Virus record (IMG/VR): IMGVR_UViG_3300009151_009555
Reading direction: 5' to 3' (one strand)
Length of the DNA stretch: 64,000 nucleotides
Source of the DNA: a virus
Of the stretch, positions 40,627-54,405 are shown one piece after another. The notes beneath the pieces were generated by a model. That model was not told the origin of the DNA, ran no database searches, and worked only from the letters and a program-made list of their open reading frames with translations. The position numbers and the translations under genes were made by a program. How positions within the stretch are numbered: position 1 is the first letter of the stretch; each line of letters starts with the position of its first letter.

Positions 40627-41256
40627 TTAGTGATTACTCTTTTCTTTACTATCTAAAGAAAAGAATTCGTCGTTTACTATAGGGCTTTCTTTTGTAGTCT
40701 CTGTAGTTTTCTTTGGAGTTTCTTTCCCTTTTTTCTTAACAAGCTTTAGATATATGCAGCTAATTTCTTCAAAAGAAAGGTTAGATTTCTTACCATTTAT
40801 GTCTATAGTACATGCGACTACATTTCCTTCGATATATCCTTTTTCTGAATCGATTCTATCAAAACTTCTTGCGTTTGGACCATCTTCTGTAAAAATTTTG
40901 TTTGTATAGTAACATGTTTTATATTCTAACATTCTTCTAACATACTCAAAGCTTAAGTTGAATTGAAGTTTTCTATCTTGGGCAGATTGGTATATGTTTA
41001 TGAGTTTTTTTGCAACTTCTACATCACTTATACAAGATTGTCTTATTTGTTGAGTTATTTGTGGTTTTTGCTCTATTGTTTGTACTTGTATTGGGTTTTC
41101 TACACTTTTTTCTGTTATTTGTACTTGTATTGGGTTTTCTACCTTTTTTTCTGTTATTTGTACAGGTGTTTGTTCTTTAGATATAGGAGTTTTTGTTTCT
41201 TTTCGAACTGTTCTAGCTTTTCTTTTAGGCTTTAGTTCTTGTTCTTTTTCTTCCAT
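40627..41256 (-). CDS. protein with N-terminal tandem repeat (PIQVQITEKSVEN x2) and a C-terminal basic region
   Basis: A nucleotide tandem repeat of about 39 nt x2 lies at 41070..41170. The C-terminal segment FDRIDSEKGYIEGNVVACTIDINGKKS has a weak HNH/His-Me-like flavour. Confidence 0.4.
   Translation of the reverse strand: MEEKEQELKPKRKARTVRKETKTPISKEQTPVQITEKKVENPIQVQITEKSVENPIQVQTIEQKPQITQQIRQSCISDVEVAKKLINIYQSAQDRKLQFNLSFEYVRRMLEYKTCYYTNKIFTEDGPNARSFDRIDSEKGYIEGNVVACTIDINGKKSNLSFEEISCIYLKLVKKKGKETPKKTTETTKESPIVNDEFFSLDSKEKSNH
41070..41170. repeat. tandem direct repeat of about 39 nt x2 inside gene 40627..41256
   Basis: TTTTCTGTTATTTGTACTTGTATTGGGTTTTCTAC occurs twice in tandem, encoding PIQVQITEKSVEN repeats. 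Confidence 0.6.
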
Positions 41257-42068: not shown

Positions 42069-42425
42069 AATATTTATTTTTTAAATATAATAACAATCTA
42101 TATATTAAAATATGAATTTTGTTTATTTTTTAAAAAGTTTTATTTTTCAATATAAATTCAAAAAAAGTTATTATATTTGTAAAAATATTCAAAAGGGAGA
42201 AAACTTTTTTAATATATAAGAATATAAATAAAGTCAAAAAGATTTGGTGGAATGAAAAACTCTACATATCTTTGTAAAAGAATTAAAAACAACAATTAAA
42301 AAACTAAATAAAATGAGAACAATTATCAACATAGAAGCGATAGGATATGCATATGAGGCGGGGAGCCTTGTAAGTAGACTGTCTTTGTCTGTTGAGTAGT
42401 TTTCAAGATTACGAAATTCGATAAA

Positions 42426-42453
42426 CCCAGTCTCAAAAAGACTGGGTTTTTTT
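42426..42453 (+). terminator. terminator CCCAGTCT-CAAAA-AGACTGGG plus T7, just upstream of the tRNA array
   Basis: 8-bp perfect stem plus T-run. No protein gene ends here, so it may terminate a small RNA. Confidence 0.45.
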
Positions 42454-42463
42454 GTTTATATAT

Positions 42464-42537
42464 GGTCCGTTAGTGAAGTGGTTTAACACGTCTCACTTTC
42501 TATGAGAAGATCATGGGTTCGAATCCCATACGGACTA
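42464..42537 (+). tRNA. tRNA with anticodon TTC (Glu-like), atypical U at position 37
   Basis: Acceptor GGTCCGT/ACGGACT (G1-U72), anticodon stem TCTCA/TGAGA, loop CTTTCTA, T-arm ATGGG-TTCGAAT-CCCAT. No CCA encoded. Confidence 0.65.
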
Positions 42538-42545
42538 CAAAATAT

Positions 42546-42628
42546 TGGAAGGTGGCCGAGTGGTTAAAGGCGGCAGACTGTAAATCTGCTCTCGCAAGAG
42601 TACGGGGGTTCGAATCCCTCCCTTCCAA
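42546..42628 (+). tRNA. tRNA-Tyr (GTA), class II with long variable arm (bacterial type)
   Basis: TGGAAGG acceptor, GGCCGAGTGGTTAAAGGC D-arm, GCAGA-CTGTAAA-TCTGC anticodon arm, 13-nt variable arm, T-arm GGGGG-TTCGAAT-CCCTC. Confidence 0.85.
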
Positions 42629-42675
42629 CAACCAGGTTCTGGTAATCTATTAAGTTAGTTTAACAGAATCAAAAT

Positions 42676-42747
42676 GGTCCATTCGTCTAGTGGTAAGGAC
42701 GTTAGGTTTTCAACCTAGAGACAGGGGTTCAATTCCCCTATGGACTG
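42676..42747 (+). tRNA. tRNA-Glu (TTC)
   Basis: GGTCCAT acceptor, D-arm GTCTAGTGGTAAGGAC, loop TTTTCAA, T-arm AGGGG-TTCAATT-CCCCT. 72 nt. Confidence 0.85.
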
Positions 42748-42753
42748 CAATAT

Positions 42754-42820
42754 GCCGGTGAACGGGTGGAAGCCAGGTCTGTAAAACCTTTGCTCGTGGG
42801 TTCGATACCCACCAACGGCA
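42754..42820 (+). tRNA. degenerate, short tRNA-like sequence (67 nt; GTA anticodon loop, Tyr-like); possible tRNA pseudogene
   Basis: Good T-arm GTGGG-TTCGATA-CCCAC. The acceptor GCCGGTG/CAACGGC has a G-A mismatch, the D-arm cannot be folded canonically, and the anticodon stem has 4 bp. Confidence 0.35.
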
Positions 42821-42825
42821 CATAT

Positions 42826-42899
42826 TGGTAAGTAGCTTAGACGGTAGAAGCATGTGTCTTATACACACAAGATAGTGGGTTCGATACCCACCTTACCAA
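42826..42899 (+). tRNA. tRNA-Ile (TAT)
   Basis: Acceptor TGGTAAG/CTTACCA, D-stem GCTT/AAGC, anticodon arm TGTGT-CTTATAC-ACACA (anticodon UAU, reads AUA), T-arm GTGGG-TTCGATA-CCCAC. Confidence 0.75.
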
Positions 42900-42910
42900 C
42901 AACAAAATAT

Positions 42911-42998
42911 GCAGGTGTCGCCTAGTTGGTCGATGGCTCCGGATTTCCAATCCGGTCAGATAAGGTTCACATCGTGGGTTCGAATCCCACTACCTGCT
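42911..42998 (+). tRNA. tRNA with anticodon TCC (Gly) but a class-II-like 18-nt variable region; discriminator U
   Basis: Acceptor GCAGGTG/TACCTGC, D-arm GCCTAGTTGGTCGATGGC, anticodon arm CCGGA-TTTCCAA-TCCGG, variable region TCAGATAAGGTTCACATC, T-arm GTGGG-TTCGAAT-CCCAC. Confidence 0.65.
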
Positions 42999-43038
42999 CA
43001 AACCGAATAGAGACAAGTGCTCATTTAATATATATTAA

Positions 43039-43785
43039 ATGAAACCTTGGGATGAAAATGAATTAAGTTTGGCAATATCTATGATAGAGTCAAAAAAAAC
43101 TTATAAAGAGATAAGTGAAAAATTAAATAGAAGCGAAAGAAGTATTAGAGAAAAACTGAGAAGAAATGGATATAAATATTTTGATTTTATAGATATTTAT
43201 GAAGATTTAAAATGTATAGAGTGTGATAAAATATTTACAGATAAAAAAATAAATAATAGAAAATTCTGCACAAGATCTTGCTCGGTTAAATTTAATAATA
43301 AATTTAAAATAAAAAATGGAAATTATGCAGTTAAAAATTCAATTGAAAAGGATTGTAAATTCTGTAATAAAAAATTAGTAAATAAAGAAAGAGTTAAAAC
43401 GTTTTGTAATAAAAAGTGTCAAAAAAATTATGAAAGGAAAATAATTTATGAAAAAATAGAAAAAGGAACATATGAATATAAAAATTCTAGAAAATATAAA
43501 GATTATTTAATTGATAAATATGGTAATAAATGTATGAAATGTGAATGGTGTGAGATTAATGAAGTAACAGGTAAAGTTCCAATTCAATTAGAACATAAAG
43601 ATGGTAATTCAAATAATAACAATCTTAATAATTTAGAGTTACTTTGTCCTAATTGTCATTCTTTAACTAGCACATATGGTTACCTAAACAAGGGTAATGG
43701 TAGGGATGAACGAAAAAAATATAGAGATTATATAAAAAATCTAACATTAGATGAATTGATTGAAATGAAAATAAAAATTGGATAG
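43039..43785 (+). mobile_element. HNH homing-endonuclease gene (N-terminal HTH-like region plus C-terminal HNH motif) inserted within the tRNA cluster
   Basis: The protein has IQLEHKDGNSNNNNLNNLELLCPNCHS (HNH motif) and several C-x2-C pairs. It is extremely AT-rich even for this genome and is flanked by tRNAs on both sides. Confidence 0.75.
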
Positions 43786-43847
43786 AATATAAAAAGACTT
43801 GAGTTTCAAAGTACACGAAACAACGAAGGTTAGTCTTCCTTCAATTT

Positions 43848-43921
43848 GGGGCTATGGTGACAACTGGCTAACACACCGCACTTGCAATGCGGAGATGGGG
43901 TATCGTACACCCCTAGCTCCA
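43848..43921 (+). tRNA. probable tRNA-Ala (TGC) with G3-U70 and an atypical T-loop (ATCGTAC)
   Basis: Acceptor GGGGCTA/TAGCTCC with a G3-T70 wobble, anticodon arm CCGCA-CTTGCAA-TGCGG, T-stem GGGGT/ACCCC. The T-loop has A54/T58 instead of T54/A58. Confidence 0.55.
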
Positions 43922-43947
43922 CAAAATTAAAAAAAATAAAAAGCAAT

Positions 43948-44241
43948 ATGAAAAAAGAATTTGATGAGAGTAAAGAAATTTTACTTAAAACATTAAATAA
44001 ATTACCAAAAGTAGATGGATATTTAGGTTATCTAGTTAATAAACATAATAATAATGTTGTATCTTTGTTTGAAGATAAAGAAGATACTATTATGTATCAT
44101 CAGTTAATGTTGTTGGTTATTGAAAAATATGAGTTTGATTGTGGTAATTATACAACTAATGGGATGACATATAAATTAAATAAAGATTGGGATGAAATAG
44201 TGATAGAATATGGTGGTTCATTATTACTACCATTTTTATAA
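43948..44241 (+). CDS. hypothetical protein, 97 aa (MKKEFDESKEILLK...)
   Basis: ORF 43882..44241 trimmed so it does not run through the tRNA. Its start lies inside a 29-nt cassette AAAAAAAATAAAAAGCAATATGAAAAAA that is repeated at 44243. Confidence 0.4.
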   Translation: MKKEFDESKEILLKTLNKLPKVDGYLGYLVNKHNNNVVSLFEDKEDTIMYHQLMLLVIEKYEFDCGNYTTNGMTYKLNKDWDEIVIEYGGSLLLPFL

Positions 44242-44262
44242 ATAAAAAAAATAAAAAGCAAT

Positions 44263-44406
44263 ATGAAAAAAAGTAAAGAAGTATTAACAGGAAGTTTTGA
44301 ATCATCAAAAGAAAAAATGAGAAGAGATACAAATGATCATGTATTTAAGTTTATAACAAAGATGATAAAACGAAAAGGGAAAAAAAAATTAAAAACTAAT
44401 GTATAA
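44263..44406 (+). CDS. possible small basic protein, 47 aa
   Basis: Starts in the second copy of the 29-nt cassette. Below the ORF-track cutoff. Confidence 0.25.
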   Translation: MKKSKEVLTGSFESSKEKMRRDTNDHVFKFITKMIKRKGKKKLKTNV

Positions 44407-44674
44407 ATTAACTAATGGTATGTGGATTCAAATTGTATTTTGTAAACCACCTAAAGAAACAGAAGAAGAAAAAATTGTTTTAGAATACACCGAAATGTTA
44501 AACTTATCAAAAGGTTGGTCAGTTATTACAGCTTATAAAGTAGAAAGTGAAAATTTCCCAACTGATAAGTGGGGTGTTGTTTTATTACGTGATGATAAAG
44601 AAATGGCTGAACATCATTTAAAACTTGCTGAGAAATCTAAACAATGTTTTGAGTTGATGAAATTGCGAGAATAG
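44399..44674 (+). CDS. hypothetical protein, 91 aa
   Basis: ORF track. Its stop overlaps the first 10 nt of tRNA-Gly. Confidence 0.4.
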   Translation: MYKLTNGMWIQIVFCKPPKETEEEKIVLEYTEMLNLSKGWSVITAYKVESENFPTDKWGVVLLRDDKEMAEHHLKLAEKSKQCFELMKLRE

Positions 44675-44736
44675 CTCAGTGGTAGAGCATCTGGTTGCCA
44701 ATCAGAAGGTCGCGGGTTCAAGCCCCGTTTCTCGCT
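44665..44736 (+). tRNA. tRNA-Gly (GCC)
   Basis: GCGAGAA/TTCTCGC acceptor, D-arm GCTCAGTGGTAGAGC, loop TTGCCAA, T-arm GCGGG-TTCAAGC-CCCGT, discriminator U. Confidence 0.9.
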
Positions 44737-44740
44737 CAAA

Positions 44741-44814
44741 GGGGAATTAGCTCAGTTGGCTAGAGCGCTTGCCTGGCAGGCAAGAGGTGACCGGTTCAAT
44801 CCCGGTATTCTCCA
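44741..44814 (+). tRNA. tRNA-Ala (GGC) with G3-U70
   Basis: GGGGAAT/ATTCTCC acceptor with a G3-T70 wobble, D-arm GCTCAGTTGGCTAGAGC, anticodon arm CTTGC-CTGGCAG-GCAAG, T-arm ACCGG-TTCAATC-CCGGT. Confidence 0.9.
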
Positions 44815-44891
44815 CAAAATATTAGGTGGCTTAGAAAACCTTCCTTATATTTGTATAAGTAATAACAACTATCATTTTTCTTTGTCAAAAG

Positions 44892-45413
44892 GTGGAGAAA
44901 AAATTTCAAAGAAATTTGAAAAAAAAAGAAAAATGTAGTATGAAAACAAACAAAGACCAATTTGGTGACCGTATGAAAATGTTCGCTCTGAAAGGAATCA
45001 AAAAAGAAACTAAAAAAATAATTATGAAATTAAATGAAATTTTATCCTCAAGTGAGGAATTGACAAGAGTTTACTCAACAAATAATTACGATCTATTTGG
45101 ATTTATTGATGGTAATAGAAATGTAAATAACTCAAATCTTAAAAAGATTAAAGAGTCTATGAGTAAAAAACATTTTATATCTAAGACTATGAAATTTGAT
45201 AATGAATTAATTAAGGATTTTATTATTGAGAAAGATCCTACCGTAAAAAGAAAAAATATCATTTTTGAAAATGTTTATATTTCAGGAGAATTAATAATGG
45301 CTCCTTACAGAGAACTTATTTGGTCTAATAAATTTAGTGTTAAGTTAGAAGACTACGAACTTAGACTAAAAGAAAAGTCGAGAGATAATAAACTTAATGA
45401 ATTGGGAATATAG
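44892..45413 (+). CDS. plus-strand member of the C-terminal-tag family (...RDNKLNELGI); start uncertain (alternative ATG at 44940)
   Basis: ORF track. Followed by the terminator GAGGTTT-T-AAACCTC plus T8 at 45414..45442. Confidence 0.45.
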   Translation: MEKKFQRNLKKKEKCSMKTNKDQFGDRMKMFALKGIKKETKKIIMKLNEILSSSEELTRVYSTNNYDLFGFIDGNRNVNNSNLKKIKESMSKKHFISKTMKFDNELIKDFIIEKDPTVKRKNIIFENVYISGELIMAPYRELIWSNKFSVKLEDYELRLKEKSRDNKLNELGI

Positions 45414-45473
45414 AAAAAAGAGGTTTTAAACCTCTTTTTTTGTTTTTGGGAAGTTTTTTCTCACAGAGAACTT

Positions 45474-45773
45474 ATGAACAAAAACGGATCTGACAAGCAA
45501 GAGATGCTTTTCCAAAAAGGAATCAACTGGAATGATTATCCGGCGTTCTTCAAAAGAGGAACCTACGTTCAGAGAAAAAGAGTTCTGACTCCATTCACAT
45601 CAGAAGAGATTGAAAAACTTCCAGTAAAACACAATGCTAGAAAAGATCCTAACTATGTGATTGAAAGATGGATTGTTGATAGAGTTGATCTACCACCTCT
45701 TTCAAAGATTGAAAACAAATCAGATGTTATTATCTGGGGTAAAGATGTAGAACTAAAAAGTCCAGCTGAATAG
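45474..45773 (+). CDS. hypothetical protein, 99 aa
   Basis: ORF track. Followed by a bidirectional hairpin CCAGCT-GAAT-AGCTGG plus T7 at 45761..45787. Confidence 0.45.
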   Translation: MNKNGSDKQEMLFQKGINWNDYPAFFKRGTYVQRKRVLTPFTSEEIEKLPVKHNARKDPNYVIERWIVDRVDLPPLSKIENKSDVIIWGKDVELKSPAE

Positions 45774-47229: not shown

Positions 47230-47448
47230 ATGAGTGAGTTGCTTAAAAAGTTGGGAATAGAGAAGGAAAAAGTTTTCAATAAAGACTTTGACTACTTCTA
47301 TGACCTTTATAAACAGAAAGCTTTGGACTATGGAAGAAAAGGTGAACTTAGGTTTTTAAAAGAACGTGGTAAAGTCATCATCTATGTTGTTATGGATGAC
47401 ATTGGTTGTCCTGATTCAGACGAAGATGATCAAATTTATCTAGACTGA
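47230..47448 (+). CDS. hypothetical protein, 72 aa
   Basis: ORF track. Preceded by TTTATATATAACTTAT at the ATG. Confidence 0.45.
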   Translation: MSELLKKLGIEKEKVFNKDFDYFYDLYKQKALDYGRKGELRFLKERGKVIIYVVMDDIGCPDSDEDDQIYLD

Positions 47449-48027
47449 TTTTTTGTAGAGAATAGATTCGACTATCTCACAGAAGATGTTTCCTATAAGA
47501 AGATGAGACTCGTTTATTCTAGGTCGATTGTTTGATGGTACTGATATGATTTCACCACAACATTCTGACATAAGTCCTGGGTCTTCACCGGTAAGTCCTA
47601 TTGTCTTCATTCCTAATCTATTTGCCATATTTAGTGCGTTGATTACACTTTTAGAATTTCCTGATGAAGAAACTGCTATAAGCATGTCACCTGGATTTCC
47701 TTGTGCTAATATCATTCTAGCATAGACTTCATCAAAAGAGTATTGATTCGAAATAGATGTTATGTATGATGAGTTTGTATGTAGAGCCTCTACATTAAGA
47801 GGTGGTCTATCATAATAGAATATTCCAGTTAGTTGAGATGCAATCTGTTGTGTTATTGTTGCCGACCCACCATTACCACATAGCAGTATCTTTCCACCAT
47901 TCTTCAATGTCGCTGCGATTTCTTTAGATACTACATCTATTGTAAATACCAATACATCATCTTCTATGATAGAGTTTTTAATTATCATAGATTCTCTAAA
48001 TCTATCTTTTATATATTGGTTATCCAT
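47440..48027 (-). CDS. gmhA: phosphoheptose isomerase (sedoheptulose-7-phosphate isomerase, SIS domain)
   Basis: KILLCGNGGSA...QIASQLTG and LIAVSSSGNSKSVINA match the GmhA signature blocks (E. coli [23 protein letters not shown] / LLGISTSGNSANVIKA, as recalled). Confidence 0.85.
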   Translation of the reverse strand: MDNQYIKDRFRESMIIKNSIIEDDVLVFTIDVVSKEIAATLKNGGKILLCGNGGSATITQQIASQLTGIFYYDRPPLNVEALHTNSSYITSISNQYSFDEVYARMILAQGNPGDMLIAVSSSGNSKSVINALNMANRLGMKTIGLTGEDPGLMSECCGEIISVPSNNRPRINESHLLIGNIFCEIVESILYKKSV

Positions 48028-48118
48028 AATAATTATATTTTTAATAATTAAAATGTTTTATTTATCTATTAAGACATCGATAGTTAAATATATACTTTAA
48101 TTAAAAAAAGTAGTTAAA

Positions 48119-51100
48119 ATGATACTTATTCAACAGATTTCAAATCTAGATTTAGAATATATTGATGATATAAAAGAATGCCTAAGACATAATGTTTTAA
48201 ACCCTATAATAGACACAATTGTAATTTTTTCAAATTGTAAGAATTTTGAAAGTAGTATAAAAATAGATTCCAGAAAAATAAAGTATTTTGAAGTTGAAAT
48301 TGACCTTTTCGAGATGATGAAATATGGTAAGAAAAACTCTAAAAATTTCATAATATATAGCTCACCATTTTTAAAGTTTGGTATTGATTTAAAGAAGGTG
48401 ATGACTTTCGACATGGAAAATGTTTTAAAAGAGGAAAATTGTTACTACATCTTCGATAAACGATTGGATATTAAAAATAAAAGAAATATAGAGGATATTT
48501 TAGATGGTCAAAAGCTACCAAATAGTTTGAATCTACAAAAGATGGGCTATTACACAAAAGGATTTCAATATAATTCTTACGATTGGAAAGTTTCAAGAAC
48601 ATATAAAGAGAAGAAGGTTGAATTAATATCTGAGAAGTTTGAATTACCTAAAATACCTAATAAAGTTGAACAAAAAATAATTGATATAATACCATCAAAA
48701 AGAGTTGGTATTAAAAAATTAGATGTGGTTATTGTATCTGTGAACTATAATGATTTTTTGATAGTTTCTTTAGAGAACAATATAGATATTTTTGAAAATA
48801 TAACAGTTGTTACTTCATCTAGTGACTTTCTATGTCAAAAGATATGTGAGAAGTTTGGGGTAAAATGTATTGTTACTGATGTGATGTATGAGAATAATGC
48901 AGTTTTCAATAAAGGTAAAGCTATAAATGAGGGAATAAGGTCTATTATGGATCCAGACTACATTCTTTTACTAGATGCGGATATTGTTGTTATGAATAAA
49001 ATAGATTTAGATACTTTAGAAGATAACTTTTTATATACATCCGAAAGATATATTGTTCCAAACTATGATTCGTATAAAAGATATATTTATGGTGATAATG
49101 AAAAATTCCGAGTTGATCCAGATAATGGTTTAGGATTTTTTCAATTGTTTAATTATTCCAAAGGAATAAAATATTCAGAACTTTTTGATAATGCTGCAGT
49201 TTCTGATATTAAATTTAGAGACAAATTCAAAGAAAAAAGAAATATTGGTAAAAGGGTATTACACTTAGGTACTGATTCTAATTGGGATGGTAGAAAATCA
49301 AAAATATTTTTGAATTATAATGAATTTATATTTCTTTTAGAAAAAAAACCATTTGATATAAATTCATATTTTGATAAAATCTATTGTCTTAATTTAGATA
49401 GAAGAGTTGATAGGTGGGAGATAGTGGATCACATGTTCAAAAAAAACAACATAAATGTAGAACGATTTTCTGCCATAGATGGAGAAAAGATATCGGATCT
49501 GGAATTTTCGGACACTGGCTTAGACGAGGATCAATGTAGTAATAAAGGTCTGATAGAAAACAAAAATTCGCTGGCTTGTCTTTTAAGCCATCTTGAGATA
49601 ATAAAAGAAGCTAAACTAAACAATTATAAAAGAATATTGATATTTGAAGATGATGTTGTATTTTCCAAATCATTTAAGAAAGATATATCGAAAATAGAAT
49701 CATATAATTGGAAGCTTTTGTATTTAGGGGCAAGTCAGTTTGACTGGGAAAATATTGAAATAAGCAACAATCATTATAAATGCAGAAAGACATTGGGAAC
49801 ATTCGCGTATGCGATTGATTCCAGTATCTATGACGATATAATTGGTGTGCTTTCGAAAAGAGAGAAATCGATTGACAACATACTTTCGGATATACAAAAA
49901 AAATACAAAAGGAGTTCGTTTGTTGCTTACCCAAACATAGTAATTTCTGATGTTTCCGATTCTGATATAAGAAAATCAAAAGACAAAATCGATTATGCAA
50001 AAATAGTAAGGTGGGACATGAGTAATTTTGAATTTACGAAGATTTTAAAAAAGGTCAGTATTGTCATACCATGCTACAATCAGTCGGAATTTTTAATCGA
50101 ATGTATAGATAGTTGCTTGTCACAAACCGTTTTACCAGATTCTATATTGGTTCTGTTGATGGATAAGAAATCAATCTCGATGAAGCAACTTTTGAAATCC
50201 AAATCCAAAAAAATAAAATGTTTTATATCGAATAGAAGATATTTGTCGAATGCCAGGAACTATCTAATAGACAAAGTAGATACCGAATACTTCATACCAC
50301 TTGATGCCGATGATAAGATACCATCGAACTTTATCGAGGAAATATCATTGATAGATGCTGATGTCGTCTATGTAGGATCCAAATATTTTGGAGGTGTTTC
50401 TGGATGCTGGCCAAATCCAATAACAGAAGAAATCAATTGGTCAAAGCTAACGACTTTTAGAAGAAATTCATTGGTCTGCACTGCTTTGATAAAAAAAGAT
50501 TCGTTTATGAAATCTGGAAGGTACAGTGATAATCTCTGGGCGTTCGAAGACATGGATCTCTGGATAAAGATGTACAAGAACGGCATGGATTTCAAGAAAT
50601 GTAATGGGACTTTCTTAAGCTATAGAAAGTATTTGTCTCAAAATTCTCTACTATCTAAGACAAACTCGGATTCGAAAAACACAGAAATTCTTAAAAAGGA
50701 AATAATGAAGGATAGTTTCTATTCAAAGACCCCTAAGATAATACACTGGGTTTGGCTTGGGAAACGGCCGGTTCCTCAGGAAGTAATCGATACATGGTAT
50801 AGAAATCTTCCAGATTCTGAATGGCGTTATATGATGTGGAATGAAGAAAACTTCGATATGGAATCATGTGATTTTTTGAAGAAGGCCTATTCACTGAAAA
50901 AATATGGAATATGTGTCGACTATATCAGAGCAAAGGTGTTACATGATTTTGGTGGAATATGGCTAGATGCAGATTGTGTCATAAACTGTGATATATCACC
51001 ATTTTTGCAATGGGACTTTTTCGCCAGCTGGGAAAATGAGAGCTACCTAAACATAGGATTGATAGGGTGTAGCCCAAATCTTGTCGCGATGAAGAATATA

Positions 51101-51433
51101 CTTGACTATTATACAGATATAAAAGTTTCGGAAAATGTATTGGTTTCAAACCATTCTTTTGTTAAAGAGATAGGGACCGGGCCTATGGTTCTGACTAGAG
51201 AGATTTTGAAGATAGAAGATATCATGAATGGTGGATTTTCGAATAGCTTCGAGAAGGATGGTAAGAGATACCTTATCGAGACACCGGACGTATTTGTTTT
51301 AGATGATTCGGAAAATGGTCATATCAATTACGCGGTGCATCTGTTTGATGGATCTTGGACGGATAAGAAAGAAGAATGGTCGGTCGTTGTGAGAAATTCC
51401 TACGATTCGTGGAAAATAAAGAACAGAATATGA
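48119..51433 (+). CDS. 1104-aa multi-domain glycosyltransferase (GT-A/DxD domain, GT25-like, GT2, GT32-like)
   Basis: Domain 1: VVIVSVNYND...LLLDADIVV. Domain 2: YCLNLDRRVDRWEIV...FSAIDG...LIFEDD (GT25/Lic2B-like). Domain 3: VSIVIPCYNQSEFLIECIDSCLSQT...LDADDKI (GT2). Domain 4: IIHWVWLGKRPVP...DYIRAKVLHDFGGIWLDADCV (GT32/Och1-like). Confidence 0.85.
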   Translation: MILIQQISNLDLEYIDDIKECLRHNVLNPIIDTIVIFSNCKNFESSIKIDSRKIKYFEVEIDLFEMMKYGKKNSKNFIIYSSPFLKFGIDLKKVMTFDMENVLKEENCYYIFDKRLDIKNKRNIEDILDGQKLPNSLNLQKMGYYTKGFQYNSYDWKVSRTYKEKKVELISEKFELPKIPNKVEQKIIDIIPSKRVGIKKLDVVIVSVNYNDFLIVSLENNIDIFENITVVTSSSDFLCQKICEKFGVKCIVTDVMYENNAVFNKGKAINEGIRSIMDPDYILLLDADIVVMNKIDLDTLEDNFLYTSERYIVPNYDSYKRYIYGDNEKFRVDPDNGLGFFQLFNYSKGIKYSELFDNAAVSDIKFRDKFKEKRNIGKRVLHLGTDSNWDGRKSKIFLNYNEFIFLLEKKPFDINSYFDKIYCLNLDRRVDRWEIVDHMFKKNNINVERFSAIDGEKISDLEFSDTGLDEDQCSNKGLIENKNSLACLLSHLEIIKEAKLNNYKRILIFEDDVVFSKSFKKDISKIESYNWKLLYLGASQFDWENIEISNNHYKCRKTLGTFAYAIDSSIYDDIIGVLSKREKSIDNILSDIQKKYKRSSFVAYPNIVISDVSDSDIRKSKDKIDYAKIVRWDMSNFEFTKILKKVSIVIPCYNQSEFLIECIDSCLSQTVLPDSILVLLMDKKSISMKQLLKSKSKKIKCFISNRRYLSNARNYLIDKVDTEYFIPLDADDKIPSNFIEEISLIDADVVYVGSKYFGGVSGCWPNPITEEINWSKLTTFRRNSLVCTALIKKDSFMKSGRYSDNLWAFEDMDLWIKMYKNGMDFKKCNGTFLSYRKYLSQNSLLSKTNSDSKNTEILKKEIMKDSFYSKTPKIIHWVWLGKRPVPQEVIDTWYRNLPDSEWRYMMWNEENFDMESCDFLKKAYSLKKYGICVDYIRAKVLHDFGGIWLDADCVINCDISPFLQWDFFASWENESYLNIGLIGCSPNLVAMKNILDYYTDIKVSENVLVSNHSFVKEIGTGPMVLTREILKIEDIMNGGFSNSFEKDGKRYLIETPDVFVLDDSENGHINYAVHLFDGSWTDKKEEWSVVVRNSYDSWKIKNRI

Positions 51434-52563
51434 GAGTAGCAGTATTCAACAACTATAAAGAGCATCTTTTTGTAGATCCTAAACCTACAGGTATAAGAAA
51501 TGTGATAGATTATGACAATATAGGAAATATTGTATTCTTAGAATCCATTTCAAGAGAACTGGATGCGGATTCTATAAGCATTTATGATTTTATACTAAAC
51601 TATAAATTGTATGAAGAAAGATATGATATGCTCATACTTTCATTAGCAAATATGGTTTCTCCTGGATATAGCATTTCTGAAGATTTTATGACGGCGTTGG
51701 AGAAGACCAAGATACCAATCTGTATATTCTCAATAGGAGTTCAGGCACAGACAGAAGATGAGCTTTATAAAAATACATTGAGTTCAAATGTTAGAAGAAT
51801 ATTAGAACTATCTAATAAAAGTGGAACAACTATTGGATTGAGAGGTGAGACGACAAAGGCTTATTTAGATAGAGAAGGAGTCAAGAACACGCATGTAATT
51901 GGATGTCCGTCACTGTTCTATAAGAAAAGCATACCTATCAAAAATGGAACTGGACCGAAAGATATATTACTTAGTGGTGGGTTTGAAGGATATTGGAGAG
52001 ATCCTCTATCGAAGATGTTCAATTTTGGATATAAATATTGCAGGTCCTATCTGGTCCAAAGTGAGTCCAGGATTCTATTTGACAAATATAAAATATCGGA
52101 GATAGAGTTGAATACATGGAATGTTTCCAAAGAAAAGAAATCATATCTGATGTGCAGAGGTTATGACTATCTTTATTATTGTCATCCGAATCTAGACAAA
52201 TTAGATTTGGAAAATTGGTTTATAGATAATTCGATTTTCCTAAACGATTTTGATAATTGGATGGAGTCGATGAACACGTATGATATGCATATAGGTGCTA
52301 GGTTTCATGGATCTGTTATGAGCACACTAGCTGGAGTACCTACGTTGATATTGGTAGGAGATTTAAGAGTTAAGGAGTTTGTGGAATTCCACGGTTTACC
52401 AAACATGAACATCTTCGACTTCGATGAAGATGTTAAGCCAAAAGATTTATATGATATGATTGATTATCAAAAATATGAAAGTAGATATGATAATCTTAAA
52501 TCTAACTACATCGGATATTTGAATAGAAATGGCTTGGAGTTTAAGTTAAATCCAACCCTCTAA
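51430..52563 (+). CDS. polysaccharide pyruvyl transferase-like protein (CsaB/WcaK family), tentative
   Basis: ORF 51376..52563 trimmed to the ATG at 51430, which overlaps the GT stop (ATATGA). The C-terminal block MHIGARFHGSVMSTLAGVPTLIL resembles the conserved C-terminal region of pyruvyl transferases. Confidence 0.4.
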   Translation: MRVAVFNNYKEHLFVDPKPTGIRNVIDYDNIGNIVFLESISRELDADSISIYDFILNYKLYEERYDMLILSLANMVSPGYSISEDFMTALEKTKIPICIFSIGVQAQTEDELYKNTLSSNVRRILELSNKSGTTIGLRGETTKAYLDREGVKNTHVIGCPSLFYKKSIPIKNGTGPKDILLSGGFEGYWRDPLSKMFNFGYKYCRSYLVQSESRILFDKYKISEIELNTWNVSKEKKSYLMCRGYDYLYYCHPNLDKLDLENWFIDNSIFLNDFDNWMESMNTYDMHIGARFHGSVMSTLAGVPTLILVGDLRVKEFVEFHGLPNMNIFDFDEDVKPKDLYDMIDYQKYESRYDNLKSNYIGYLNRNGLEFKLNPTL

Positions 52564-54405
52564 GTTATTAAGTCTTCTTTTCAAAGATTGAAGTAAATAA
52601 CGGTTTGCTTTGATATAGTCTTCGTCGTTCAAGAAATCTTTGTTGTCTGGCTCATTAAAGACTAATCTTTTTTGTCTTCCAGAACCTAATACTCCTTCCA
52701 TGTTTTCTATCTGGTTTATCTTCTCTTTTAAATCTTTAAGTATTGTTTGCTTAGTCATTGCATCCATTTTGTAGTTGTACGCAAACCTGTCAGTCCAATA
52801 GAAGCTCTTCTCATTTGTTTTAAGTCCAAGTGCTTGACAATCTTCTGATATAAAGTTTCCTTTCTCAGTTTTGAAGACTTTTACACCATGGTCGTTGAAG
52901 TAGTATTTTCCGTTTTCTCCTTTGCTGAGTACGTCACCTGCAATATAGTCGCTGTCGTGTTCAAACTTTTTAAGATATTCTCCACACTCCATACTATCAA
53001 GACTCACCATGTTTTTGTCTTGGTCTGAAAGTGTTTCGGTTCCTGTTCTACATTCTTGTAGGTCCGAATCTTCTTCTATCCAGTTTATACACTGCATTTG
53101 GTCATCCTCCAAAAAGTTATCGTCGTACCATTCAGAATAAACGGAATCGTTTTCGTGTATCCAGTTTCCGGTTACACAGTCTCTTATTATAGAACTATAC
53201 TCATCTGGATACCATCCTCTATTTGATCCGTACTCGACGTGCATTGCGTCCTCTCTGTATATCCAGTCTCCCAAAGGATCTGAATAGATTGCCTCGCTTT
53301 CTGGTATTCTACAGTCGAAATAGTCAGACCATTTTCCTGAAGTGTCGTCATATGAACCATCAGTATGTGTCATTATGTAACAACCTTCGTAGTCTTCGTC
53401 ATCGTCGTTTATTAAAAGGTTTTTGGATCTCAAAAGCCTTTTGAATGTGTCCATATAAGGATACATATCGAAGTCGTGGCTTTTTAACTCTACGGTTGCT
53501 CTTAAGCCGAAGTATTCTTCATCACCTAGCTTGAAGTCTTTGCTTGCTCCGTATTGTGATGTAAGTCTTTTAAGCCATCCTTGCTTGTCTGCGTATTGTT
53601 GAAACATCAATTTTGTTGCATCATCTATGGCATAGATTCTATCCATGTAGTATTCAACATTATCTATGTTAATCTCTTTTATTTTCCAGATTAGAACTCT
53701 TCCTCTAATCTCTTCACCATCTTCACTTTTTAGTATCAATAGTCTACAAACTTCTGGGTTTTCAGAGTAGATGTTTAAGTATTGACCACATCTTGGATAT
53801 CTCATACAAGAGCTTCCAAGCTCTCCTGTTTCGAACTCGTATTGCTTTTCGTTATACCAATGTTTTATTTCATTGCCTTCTACCAATACGAATTCTGCAT
53901 CAGTGTCTCCAATCTTTTTGAAAAGGTTTGTAAACTCTTCTACTTCTTTGTTATTGTATTTATCAGGAAAAATTTGATTTACAAGTTTGGCAATCTTAGC
54001 ATCACTTCTTGCTTTGTCTTTAAGACTCCAGGGTTCGCTGTTGTATATGTAGTTCACGTCGCTTTGTGATATCGTTCCGTCTTCTATTTTTGTATGGATT
54101 CTACTGAGTGCATCTAGTCCGACACCATGTATTTTTGTAAACTCTTCAATTGATTTCTTTAAAGAATTGACTGCTTTTTTTATTTGTGTAAATGAAAAGT
54201 ATCCTTCTTTATCAGACATACCAATAAAAGTCATATCTGGTTTTACGTCTGTATATTCGACATCTATTAAGTCTTTTGCAATCTTATTTTTTAAACTAAG
54301 TTTGTATAAAGAATCTTTGAACTCTTTTGTATAATAAATCATTGATTCATTTACTACGTTCTCAAACAATCTTTCACCTAAAAATGTGTTATATCTTGAT
54401 ATCAT
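52546..54405 (-). CDS. large acidic protein, 619 aa; paralog of the N-terminal domain of 35747..37273
   Basis: Shared block HWYNEKQYEFETGELGSSCMRYPRCGQYLNIYSENPEVCRLLILKSEDGEEIRGRVLIW. The C-terminal half is Asp/Glu/Trp/Tyr-rich. Confidence 0.6.
   Translation of the reverse strand: MISRYNTFLGERLFENVVNESMIYYTKEFKDSLYKLSLKNKIAKDLIDVEYTDVKPDMTFIGMSDKEGYFSFTQIKKAVNSLKKSIEEFTKIHGVGLDALSRIHTKIEDGTISQSDVNYIYNSEPWSLKDKARSDAKIAKLVNQIFPDKYNNKEVEEFTNLFKKIGDTDAEFVLVEGNEIKHWYNEKQYEFETGELGSSCMRYPRCGQYLNIYSENPEVCRLLILKSEDGEEIRGRVLIWKIKEINIDNVEYYMDRIYAIDDATKLMFQQYADKQGWLKRLTSQYGASKDFKLGDEEYFGLRATVELKSHDFDMYPYMDTFKRLLRSKNLLINDDDEDYEGCYIMTHTDGSYDDTSGKWSDYFDCRIPESEAIYSDPLGDWIYREDAMHVEYGSNRGWYPDEYSSIIRDCVTGNWIHENDSVYSEWYDDNFLEDDQMQCINWIEEDSDLQECRTGTETLSDQDKNMVSLDSMECGEYLKKFEHDSDYIAGDVLSKGENGKYYFNDHGVKVFKTEKGNFISEDCQALGLKTNEKSFYWTDRFAYNYKMDAMTKQTILKDLKEKINQIENMEGVLGSGRQKRLVFNEPDNKDFLNDEDYIKANRYLLQSLKRRLNNLEGWI

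Follow-up and report, generated by a model that had tools for sequence, protein, structure and literature searches.

A probable working nine-gene tRNA array with conserved non-canonical members in a large AT-rich environmental phage

The tRNA array and the codons it serves

A stretch of viral DNA of 64,000 nucleotides (nt), IMG/VR record IMGVR_UViG_3300009151_009555, here called the window, carries on its plus strand a dense group of transfer RNA (tRNA) genes, in which canonical members stand beside several of unusual structure and into which an HNH endonuclease gene is intercalated. An earlier reading of the letters alone, below called the sequence-only reading, had described such an interrupted island with nine tRNA or tRNA-like genes, several of them non-canonical, and the details listed for it can all be found in the sequence. 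We think that this is probably a working array of a large AT-rich environmental phage, remodelled by mobile DNA, in which the odd genes are functional members of conserved families. The nine genes, with their scores against the Rfam model RF00005, are the following.

42464..42537, plus strand: tRNA-Glu(UUC) with U37, anticodon loop CUUUCUA, G1.U72, A73; 66.4 bits
42546..42628, plus strand: tRNA-Tyr(GUA), class II, U1-A72, A73; 62.1 bits
42676..42747, plus strand: tRNA-Glu(UUC) with the canonical loop UUUUCAA, G1.U72, G73; 65.7 bits
42754..42820, plus strand: compact 67-nt tRNA(GUA)-like gene with reduced D arm; 29.4 bits
42826..42899, plus strand: tRNA-Ile(UAU), U1-A72, A73; 64.2 bits
42911..42998, plus strand: tRNA-Gly(UCC) with a class II body plan, 89 nt according to ARAGORN, U73; 55.5 bits
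43848..43921, plus strand: tRNA-Ala(UGC), G3.U70, A73, A54/U58; 47.0 bits
44665..44736, plus strand: tRNA-Gly(GCC), canonical, U73; 71.5 bits
44741..44814, plus strand: tRNA-Ala(GGC), canonical, G3.U70, A73; 63.2 bits

The tRNA genes were called with ARAGORN and with the RF00005 covariance model, which has a gathering threshold of 29 bits. ARAGORN, proposed earlier as a check of this region, called eight of the nine on the plus strand between 42464 and 44815 and none elsewhere in the window. RF00005 matched the same eight at 47-71.5 bits and added the ninth at 42754-42820, and all nine, at 29 bits or more, match model positions 1-71. The genes that had been considered clean (the class II Tyr-GTA, Glu-TTC, Gly-GCC and Ala-GGC) are all present; the U1-A72 pair of tRNA-Tyr and tRNA-Ile and the G1.U72 pair of both tRNA-Glu go beyond the sequence-only reading. 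CCA is encoded by none of the nine, and each continues as N73-C-A, with CAA in eight of them (trailers 42538-44818). A scan for sigma-70 promoters gave 21 sites against 20.2 in shuffled sequence, and no promoter was assigned. A match resembling YrlA/Y-RNA at 42769-42885 was rejected, as its score (23 against 69 bits) is far under the threshold.

The relatives used for comparison, designated by L-numbers, are phage loci fetched from IMG/VR and from metagenome contigs with patterns taken from the window tRNAs, and the ARAGORN calls from these loci, 1714 in number with 1289 unique sequences, form the pool of our census. The array of L072 runs Glu-Tyr-Glu-Ile(UAU)-Gly(UCC, 89 nt)-Gly(GCC)-Ala(GGC), those of L033, L035, L038 and L080 run Tyr-...-Gly(UCC, 89 nt)-Ala(UGC)-Gly(ACC)-Ala(GGC), and a homologous array is present in LR756502.1, a huge-phage assembly of 642 kilobases (kb). 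The tRNA-Tyr(GUA) has 88-89% identity to its counterparts in L033, L035, L072 and L080. C74 without a full CCA is commonly encoded in the sampled arrays (458 of 1289 unique tRNAs). A tRNA-Gly(ACC) takes the place of the GCC gene of the window in L033 (4591-4663), L035 (1660-1732), L038 (234-306) and L080 (3222-3294), and other anticodons with A34 in the sampled arrays are Ser-ACT, Ser-AGA, Ile-AAT, Asn-ATT, Asp-ATC and Leu-AAG; in bacteria, A34 is normally confined to tRNA-Arg(ACG).

Codon usage was counted over 83 non-overlapping open reading frames (ORFs) of the window, 49.8 kb in all. ATA makes up 51% of the Ile codons and is the fourth most used codon overall, and the preference for a final A is seen also for Gly (GGA, 52%), Glu (GAA, 73%) and Ala (GCA, 43%). 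With the anticodons UAU for Ile, UCC and GCC for Gly, UGC and GGC for Ala, UUC twice for Glu, and GUA for Tyr, the island covers the Gly and Ala boxes fully as well as the heaviest A-ending codons of the phage. The suggestion that a tRNA-Ile with a TAT anticodon, reading AUA directly, would be useful to an AT-rich phage thus agrees with the codon usage on the phage side, as does the figure for GGA, the second codon that had been singled out for comparison. For the most frequent Gly codon and the most frequent Ala codon the window has no decoder besides two of the odd genes, tRNA-Gly(UCC) and tRNA-Ala(UGC).

Four families of non-canonical tRNA

The tRNA-Gly(UCC) has an 18-nt variable region, TCAGATAAGGTTCACATC, a D stem of 3 base pairs (bp) of the class II type, and U73; the long, class-II-like variable region and the U73 had been claimed before and are borne out by the sequence and the alignments. 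Together with its surroundings, over 94 nt, it is 100% identical in L033, L035 and L038, where the neighbouring tRNAs have only 84-93% identity to those of the window, and the tRNA itself is identical also in L072 and L080, which makes five other contigs in all. In L084 the variable loop is the same and the anticodon stem has changed with compensation, from CCGGA/TCCGG to CCAGA/TCTGG. The scaffold of acceptor and D arm is reused with other long variable arms in L037 and L043, with a short one in L058, and with a Lys(UUU) anticodon and A73 in L044 and L046. Among the seven distinct sequences of this Gly/Lys scaffold 100% of the cells are paired and six pairs have changed on both sides, values that no shuffle reached. 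In L252 the variable loop is identical to that of the window at 16 of 18 positions, while the acceptor (7/14) and the anticodon stem (6/10) have diverged with compensation, and the motif GAUAAR..UCAC.UC of the loop recurs in L202 and L216. That the loop has been kept while the helices diverged points to a sequence-specific role for it.

The variable region exceeds the 10 nt that delimit class II, but it is not predicted to form a stem-loop, nor do UCC and U73 belong to Leu, Ser or Tyr; as no hairpin is predicted in the loop, class II describes only the shape of this tRNA. The identity of bacterial tRNA-Gly is determined by U73, G1-C72, C2-G71, G3-C70, C35 and C36. The window gene carries U73, G1-C72, C2-G71, C35 and C36, and has A-U at 3:70 instead of G3-C70; L001, L002 and LR756502.1 have the same A3-U70 in their short Gly(UCC) genes.

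Long arms together with G73 or U73 have been taken as marks of serine identity in allo-tRNAs (PMC5389517), and in the same fashion the tRNA(UCC) might be charged by seryl-tRNA synthetase and recode GGA as Ser, an idea that we find hardly credible. The branch has a 7-bp acceptor and a 5-bp T stem, not the 8/4 or 9/3 of allo-tRNAs, the loop lacks a stable stem, and recoding would be proteome-wide, since GGA is the commonest Gly codon of the phage. Long variable regions are found on 70 unique class I tRNAs in the sample, and their discriminators follow the amino acid of the anticodon and not Ser: U73 in 8/8 Cys and 7/8 Gly, G73 in 8/10 Asn, A73 in 6/6 Ile and 4/4 Pro, and C73 in 2/2 His. This argues for cognate charging and against a Ser, Leu or Tyr identity, and on these statistics, the 7/5 branch and the unpaired loop we reject mischarging with Ser. 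The mirror image of the long Gly, Lys and Cys genes also exists, in the form of Leu and Tyr isoacceptors of class II with a short variable loop; such tRNA-Leu genes of 74-76 nt lie in L135 (2891-3202), L002 (15660-15733), L180 (2082-2156) and L187 (2073-2146).

For the tRNA-Ala(UGC), a G3-U70 pair and a swapped A54/T58 had been proposed, and G3.U70, A73 and the T loop ATCGTAC are indeed there. The G3.U70 wobble of alanine identity, together with A73, is found in both Ala genes of the window, and G3.U70 is invariant among eight aligned A54/U58 relatives, in which 11 of 20 pairs have changed with compensation. Ala(UGC) genes with A54/U58 were found in nine distinct forms, on backbones that differ widely, and LR756502.1 adds another.

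The swap is not restricted to alanine. Among the unique tRNAs of the census, positions 54 and 58 are T/A in 1184, A/T in 66, A/A in 12, C/A in 8, G/G in 5 and T/T in 1 (Fisher p = 2e-96 for their covariation), and the swapped loops occur with 23 anticodons. A60 is present in 44/66 of the swapped loops against 21/1184 of the canonical ones, and G55 replaces U55 in 10/66, which points to a T-loop architecture of its own and not to a simple swap. The excess of A54/U58 is unlikely to be an artefact of detection, because the consensus used by ARAGORN should penalise a double change more heavily than a single one.

The second tRNA with a TTC anticodon and U37 that had been pointed out is the first gene of the array, at 42464, with the anticodon loop CTTTCTA. 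The complete arm, TCTCA-CTTTCTA-TGAGA, sits on four Glu backbones, those of L178, of L179/184/185, of L180, and of L182, which equals the window. When this family is aligned with an A37 homolog from L001, compensatory change is seen in 12 of 21 pairs and G1.U72 is invariant. A pyrimidine at position 37 is rare in the sample (39/1276) and clusters in two isoacceptor groups, Asp(GUC) (18 cases) and Glu (six cases). Glu identity of the E. coli type uses G1-C72 and A37. G1.U72, invariant in the U37 subfamily, is also the majority state of the sampled phage tRNA-Glu(UUC) genes (35/59).

The fourth family is that of the 67-nt element, whose D arm is truncated and whose variable loop measures 5 nt; it has the anticodon GUA and A73, and G5 is mismatched with A68. 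The sequence-only reading had its length and anticodon right and called it degenerate; that word does not hold, as the element seems to be a member of a conserved compact family, which ARAGORN missed. Homologs are present in L135, L137, L167, L126, L101/L138 and L033. Those found first, which ARAGORN had not called, were recognised by the shared anticodon arm, and a covariance model built from four of them recovered the members in L167, L101/L138 and L033 and gave eight further matches. In the alignment of nine rows, two of which are tRNAs of ordinary length (Leu-UAA of L187 and Cys-GCA of L271), 95.8% of the cells are paired and compensatory change is seen in 13 of 16 pairs, and five rows have a purine-purine mismatch at 5:68 (G·A or A·G). 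Over 50 nt of its 3' part, the element of the window has 84% identity to a gene of Pectobacterium phage CBB (L287, 1472-1544), annotated as 'tRNA-Pyl' with the amber-reading anticodon CUA, near which there is an HNH endonuclease gene.

Some of the odd species could work outside the ribosome, as aminoacyl donors for Mom or Fem-type enzymes, as decoys for tRNases or as regulatory tRNA-like RNAs. Mom modifies DNA by using Gly-tRNA-Gly (PMC13219725), stable tRNA-like RNAs of unknown function are annotated in the tRNA region of phage T5, Mukai et al. found irregular tRNAs that receive an amino acid and yet take no part in translation (PMC5389517), and the compact GUA gene shares its anticodon with a normal tRNA-Tyr at a distance of 125 nt. 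We nevertheless regard such roles as improbable, as the codon usage fits a role in decoding, the compact gene is the sole GUA gene in the 14-tRNA array of L126, and a non-exhaustive scan of 37 ORFs of the window found no Mom-like GNAT or Fem-like gene.

It had been argued that scores below the threshold would make decayed pseudogenes of the odd genes. The tRNA-Gly(UCC), the tRNA-Glu with U37 and the tRNA-Ala(UGC) reach 55.5, 66.4 and 47.0 bits against 29, while the 67-nt element is just above the line. That the four are leftovers of duplicated tRNAs in decay is something we judge very improbable. The irregularities of the 67-nt element (29.4 bits, two stem mismatches, no proper D stem) speak for it, as do its absence from the syntenic array of L072 and the fact that the counterpart there of the Ala-TGC gene is not called by ARAGORN. 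Against it stand the scores of three of the four, the retained identity determinants, and the position of Gly(UCC) and Ala(UGC) as the window's only decoders of the commonest Gly and Ala codons. Compensatory changes in the stems are found in independent contigs, in every helix of all four families, and by this covariation decay is largely refuted. The four odd genes are therefore, as far as comparison of sequences can tell, members of conserved phage tRNA families and not decayed copies.

Mobile DNA in the array and the genes around it

The other features of the island and its vicinity are listed here.

40627-41256, minus strand: ORF of 209 amino acids, 1.2 kb upstream of the island
42423..42449, plus strand: terminator-like hairpin with an 11-bp stem and a T run, just 5' of the first tRNA
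43003..43794, plus strand: inserted cassette of 792 nt with the HNH endonuclease gene, 4 nt past tRNA-Gly(UCC)
43039-43785, plus strand: HNH ORF of 248 amino acids, with an N-terminal helix-turn-helix-like region and a C-terminal HNH domain
43824..43843, plus strand: spacer hairpin GAAGG-TTAGTCTT-CCTTC, just 5' of tRNA-Ala(UGC)
43925..43956, plus strand: first copy of a 32-nt cassette, an A-rich 5' untranslated region (5' UTR) with start codon
43948..44241, plus strand: ORF of 97 amino acids, bracketed by the cassette copies and found only in the window among the relatives compared
44240..44271, plus strand: second copy of the 32-nt cassette, which aligns to the single copy of L035 (1489-1519)
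44263..44406, plus strand: basic ORF of 47 amino acids, after the Ala-TGC gene, with 86% identity in L033, L035, L038 and L080
44399..44674, plus strand: ORF of 91 amino acids, with 70% identity to L072 5873-6070; its 3' end overlaps tRNA-Gly(GCC) by 10 nt
44940..45758, plus strand: broken Thg1-like gene (3'-5' nucleotidyltransferase), the downstream neighbour of the island

The interruption of the island by an HNH endonuclease gene, as claimed earlier, is well supported. The ORF matches phrog_1271 at 4e-21 as well as other HNH PHROGs, and the motif EHKDGN...N...CPNCH is readable in it, while the match to Pfam HNH_3 is only 0.0023 and below the cutoff of that family. The 792-nt insert lies exactly between CTGCTCAA and AAAGACTT, and the empty site is seen in L035 and L080, where the spacer between Gly and Ala is an uninterrupted 44 nt; L072 also lacks the insert. 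In more than ten other arrays, homologs of the HNH gene lie 2-30 nt from tRNAs. HNH genes flank Gly(UCC) both in the window and in L035. The one carried by relatives of the L035 type is not the HNH gene of the window; it lies on the opposite flank of the tRNA and overlaps its 5' end. From this distribution we predict that the enzyme behaves as a free-standing homing endonuclease.

Of the 29-nt cassette that had been reported as duplicated at 43929 and 44243, the duplication stands. The cassette is 32 nt long, however, and its copies, 97% identical, flank an inserted ORF instead of being a free-standing repeat. In L035 it is single and precedes a 48-amino-acid ORF, whereas in the window it is duplicated around the extra 97-amino-acid ORF, and the duplication is the footprint of an insertion by recombination between short 5' UTR and start sequences.

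The Thg1-like family adds nucleotides to tRNA in the 3'-5' direction. Intact genes of this family lie inside the tRNA arrays of L001, L002, L017, L026 and L027, but the gene downstream of the island lacks the combination of an intact N-terminal palm domain and a Thg1C domain that marks such a protein. What remains is residues 1-15, encoded at 44940-44984, and residues 170-270, encoded at 45456-45758. In place of the catalytic palm domain there are an unrelated 158-amino-acid ORF and a terminator (45413-45441), with an in-frame stop. An intein or intron was considered for the split and rejected, as the whole palm domain is gone and a stop and a terminator intervene. Scans of Pfam, PHROG and NCBIfam with the small ORFs of the island and with the insert in the Thg1-like gene gave nothing above noise.

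The terminator-like hairpin at 42423..42449 marks the 5' limit of the array, and the spacer hairpin at 43824..43843, kept in L035, L080 and L072, may be a signal for processing or regulation. The 209-amino-acid ORF upstream matches PHROGs of the Srd anti-sigma factor, HNH endonuclease and endonuclease VII (1.5e-23 to 1.7e-8) and has a homolog in L038 at 55% identity.

The window ranges over 26-38% G+C, with about 30-33% as the figure for the phage, and codes for DNA methyltransferases, glycosyltransferases and a GmhA-like protein, with few recognisable phage structural genes. A cluster of sugar genes at 47440-54405 comprises a GmhA-like phosphoheptose isomerase, a protein of 1104 amino acids with three glycosyltransferase domains, and a polysaccharide pyruvyl transferase. 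The host is likely a member of the Bacteroidota, because the nearest bacterial relatives of the GmhA (44-55% identity) come almost only from metagenome-assembled genomes of that phylum. Bacteroidetes hosts have been predicted for phage genomes above 634 kb (Al-Shayeb et al. 2020, PMC7162821). In a megablast search of GenBank phages no close relative of the window was found, only two tRNA fragments of about 50 nt, and a distant blastn search gave only huge-phage assemblies and a partial match to the suppressor-type tRNA of phage CBB. A scan of metagenomes with 16-mers gave 51 matches, mostly by chance and in unrelated DNA, and in the viral and metagenome scans a tRNA start was found at only 9 of 55 new loci.

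Function, spread and comparison with known systems

The array would begin after the terminator and be made as a common precursor of its nine closely spaced genes, from which RNase P and a 3' processing enzyme of the host would cut the tRNAs, and a CCA-adding enzyme would finish their ends. It would thus offer full decoding of the Gly and Ala boxes, of Glu and Tyr, and of Ile codons of the AUA type. The odd tRNAs would be charged with their cognate amino acid and used in translation; cognate charging is the most likely, since U73 in Gly, G3.U70 with A73 in Ala, and A73 in the GUA gene match the anticodons. Mobile DNA has since reshaped this array. The cassette with the presumed HNH homing enzyme inserted 4 nt past the Gly tRNA, recombination between 32-nt 5' UTR cassettes brought in a small ORF, and a further insertion cost the adjacent Thg1-like gene its catalytic domain.

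Several points weigh against a working and conserved array. The relatives were retrieved with patterns from these very tRNAs, so whatever the patterns cover is bound to be invariant, and the census draws on a biased sample, in which the neighbouring genes within each locus were not selected for. The mini-tRNA alignment was fitted to a covariance model, and the 67-nt element is missed by ARAGORN, marginal with RF00005 (29.4 against 29 bits) and missing at the syntenic site of L072. The Gly variable loop of the window type has a predicted energy of 0.0 kcal/mol and no predicted pairs, whereas sister tRNAs with long variable regions have ordinary hairpins of -1.8 to -4.5 kcal/mol. The identity of the Gly(UCC) gene across contigs could partly come from co-conversion by HNH enzymes and not from selection. 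The genome is covered by 64 kb only, and other tRNAs may lie elsewhere in it.

Why phages should keep such shapes is a more tentative matter. At least one type of variant is present in 70/103 non-redundant arrays, and the island might be an example of a repertoire, widespread and apparently not yet described, of conserved non-canonical phage tRNAs, kept to uncouple them from tRNA nucleases and modification enzymes of the host while synthetases and ribosomes can still use them; we put this forward as a speculative idea and would not rate its chances high. With the same reserve, the repertoire would include the A54-U58 T loop, usually with A60, class I tRNAs with a class II body and a long variable loop, in some cases conserved in sequence, Leu and Tyr tRNAs with a short variable loop, among them the 67-nt element, and Glu and Asp tRNAs with U37.

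By analogy with known defences, it is possible, though we would not count on it, that the odd shapes are kept as poor substrates for tRNA nucleases or for enzymes modifying the T loop or the anticodon loop, and that phage translation in this way survives immunity. This would add a reason to the reading of a working, conserved array and not replace it. The A54/U58 exchange removes U54 and A58, which are targets of T-loop methylation. The variants are also conserved, recurrent and spread over many anticodons. Loop changes in phage tRNAs are predicted or shown to resist anticodon nucleases (PMC10264068), and there are precedents in PARIS with the tRNA-Lys of T5 (PMC11464382), retron-Eco7 with tRNA-Tyr (PMC11555353) and Schlafen (PMC13056530). 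The published resistance changes, on the other hand, lie in the anticodon loop or stem and not in the T loop or variable arm, and the variants are mostly not back-ups: a canonical partner with the same anticodon is found in the same locus for only 20-22% of the variant tRNAs, against 12% of the canonical ones, which gives the idea of back-up copies weak support, and we have set it aside.

Tolerated drift would explain the same spread by duplication, anticodon switching, gene conversion and co-conversion during homing, by which acceptable variants travel within and between fast-evolving arrays with no special function, and we hold this to be conceivable, at rather long odds. In L002, nearly identical swapped T loops, such as ATCGTAA, are found on Glu, Asn, Val and Ile tRNAs of one array, the long Gly tRNA has an HNH gene directly beside it both in the window and in L035, and the 12 A54/A58 cases provide an intermediate, a state that is functional in eukaryotic initiator tRNA and tRNA-Ala (PMC7912444, PMC7566577). 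Drift accounts less well for a Gly variable loop that is more conserved (16/18) than the helices around it, for a U37 arm retained over four diverged backbones and for the three-way linked change at 54, 58 and 60, and L072 has the identical Gly tRNA with no HNH gene adjoining it.

The usual view of phage tRNA genes is that they are ordinary copies which make up for differences in codon usage. A more recent view sees in them substitutes for host tRNAs that immunity has destroyed, and it has considered the anticodon loop only. Here it is the core architecture that varies in conserved ways, in the 54-58 pair of the T loop, the variable arm and the D arm, and most of the arrays sampled from large environmental phages show such variants again. 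If these tRNAs are charged and used, bacterial synthetases, EF-Tu, RNase P and ribosomes would accept a wider range of structures than is known so far, and the variants would supply natural scaffolds for the design of orthogonal tRNAs and be testable candidates for resistance to defences that target tRNA. Standard tRNA finders under-call or mislabel such genes, as with the 67-nt family that ARAGORN missed.

In its layout, with small ORFs and HNH genes among the tRNA genes, the island is of the kind known from T5 and T4. The tRNA region of T5 (AY543070, about 28-41 kb, with the HNH genes F-TflI, F-TflII and F-TflIV) is likewise a dense array on one strand, with tiny ORFs interspersed, HNH genes that abut or overlap tRNAs, and tRNA-like RNAs and a pseudo-tRNA. 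Unlike in the window, CCA is encoded in its tRNA genes, and none of them is of a variant type, T loop and variable region being canonical throughout; there is no sequence similarity. In the tRNA cluster of T4, the free-standing homing endonuclease SegB promotes the inheritance of the tRNA genes that flank it; SegB is a GIY-YIG enzyme, whereas the putative homing enzyme of the window is of the HNH type. Phages of the T4 type also have PeSL cassettes, short repeated promoter and 5' UTR cassettes that flank small ORFs and mediate shuffling by recombination. The 32-nt cassette differs in having no recognisable promoter or stem-loop, and only two good copies were found.

Two Mahaphage assemblies, LR756502.1 (642 kb) and LR745206.1 (635 kb), have a homologous array, Glu-Tyr-Glu-...-Ile(UAU)-Gly(UCC)-Gly(GCC)-Ala(UGC), in which the Ala-UGC gene has the same acceptor and D arm and A54/U58. 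It also holds a Glu with a long variable region and a Glu(CUC) with a swapped loop, and its Gly(UCC) genes are short, unlike that of the window. The tRNAs of such phages have been described as distinct from host tRNAs, and the structural variants are not described there (PMC7162821).

Nematode nev-tRNAs (Hamashima et al.), which include tRNA-Gly and tRNA-Ile with a variable arm, are reportedly charged with Leu. They share the class II arm on Gly and Ile anticodons with the phage genes, and differ in being eukaryotic and in the Leu charging, while the discriminator of the window gene fits Gly. Long arms on anticodons other than Ser, Leu or Tyr are known also from allo-tRNAs and the tRNA-Cys of the selC* type (PMC5389517; reviewed in PMC7609411), and selC* keeps its Cys identity (U73, GCA) despite the long arm, as the long Cys genes of phages do. 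These have an 8/4 or 9/3 branch and D arms like that of tRNA-Sec, in contrast to the 7/5 branch, 3-bp D stem of the Tyr/Leu type and unpaired variable loop of the window Gly. The combination of A54 with A60 is found in eukaryotic initiator tRNA and tRNA-Ala (PMC7912444, PMC7566577), but eukaryotic T loops keep A58, with an A54-A58 purine pair, where the phage variant swaps to A54-U58. Mitochondrial tRNA-Ser(AGY) (PMC4013460), in which only a loop is left of the D stem while the T arm and the acceptor are normal, resembles the 67-nt element; it has dedicated factors of its own, and the phage element keeps the GG of the D region and a canonical T loop.

A 2024 paper describes all known bacterial tRNAs as canonical cloverleaves (PMC11551756). 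Our search of the literature, of incomplete coverage, found no description of A54-U58 T loops, of class I phage tRNAs with a long variable region and a 7/5 branch, or of phage tRNAs with a reduced D arm. The variant tRNAs of this array thus resemble several known oddities without belonging to any of them, and they look undescribed.

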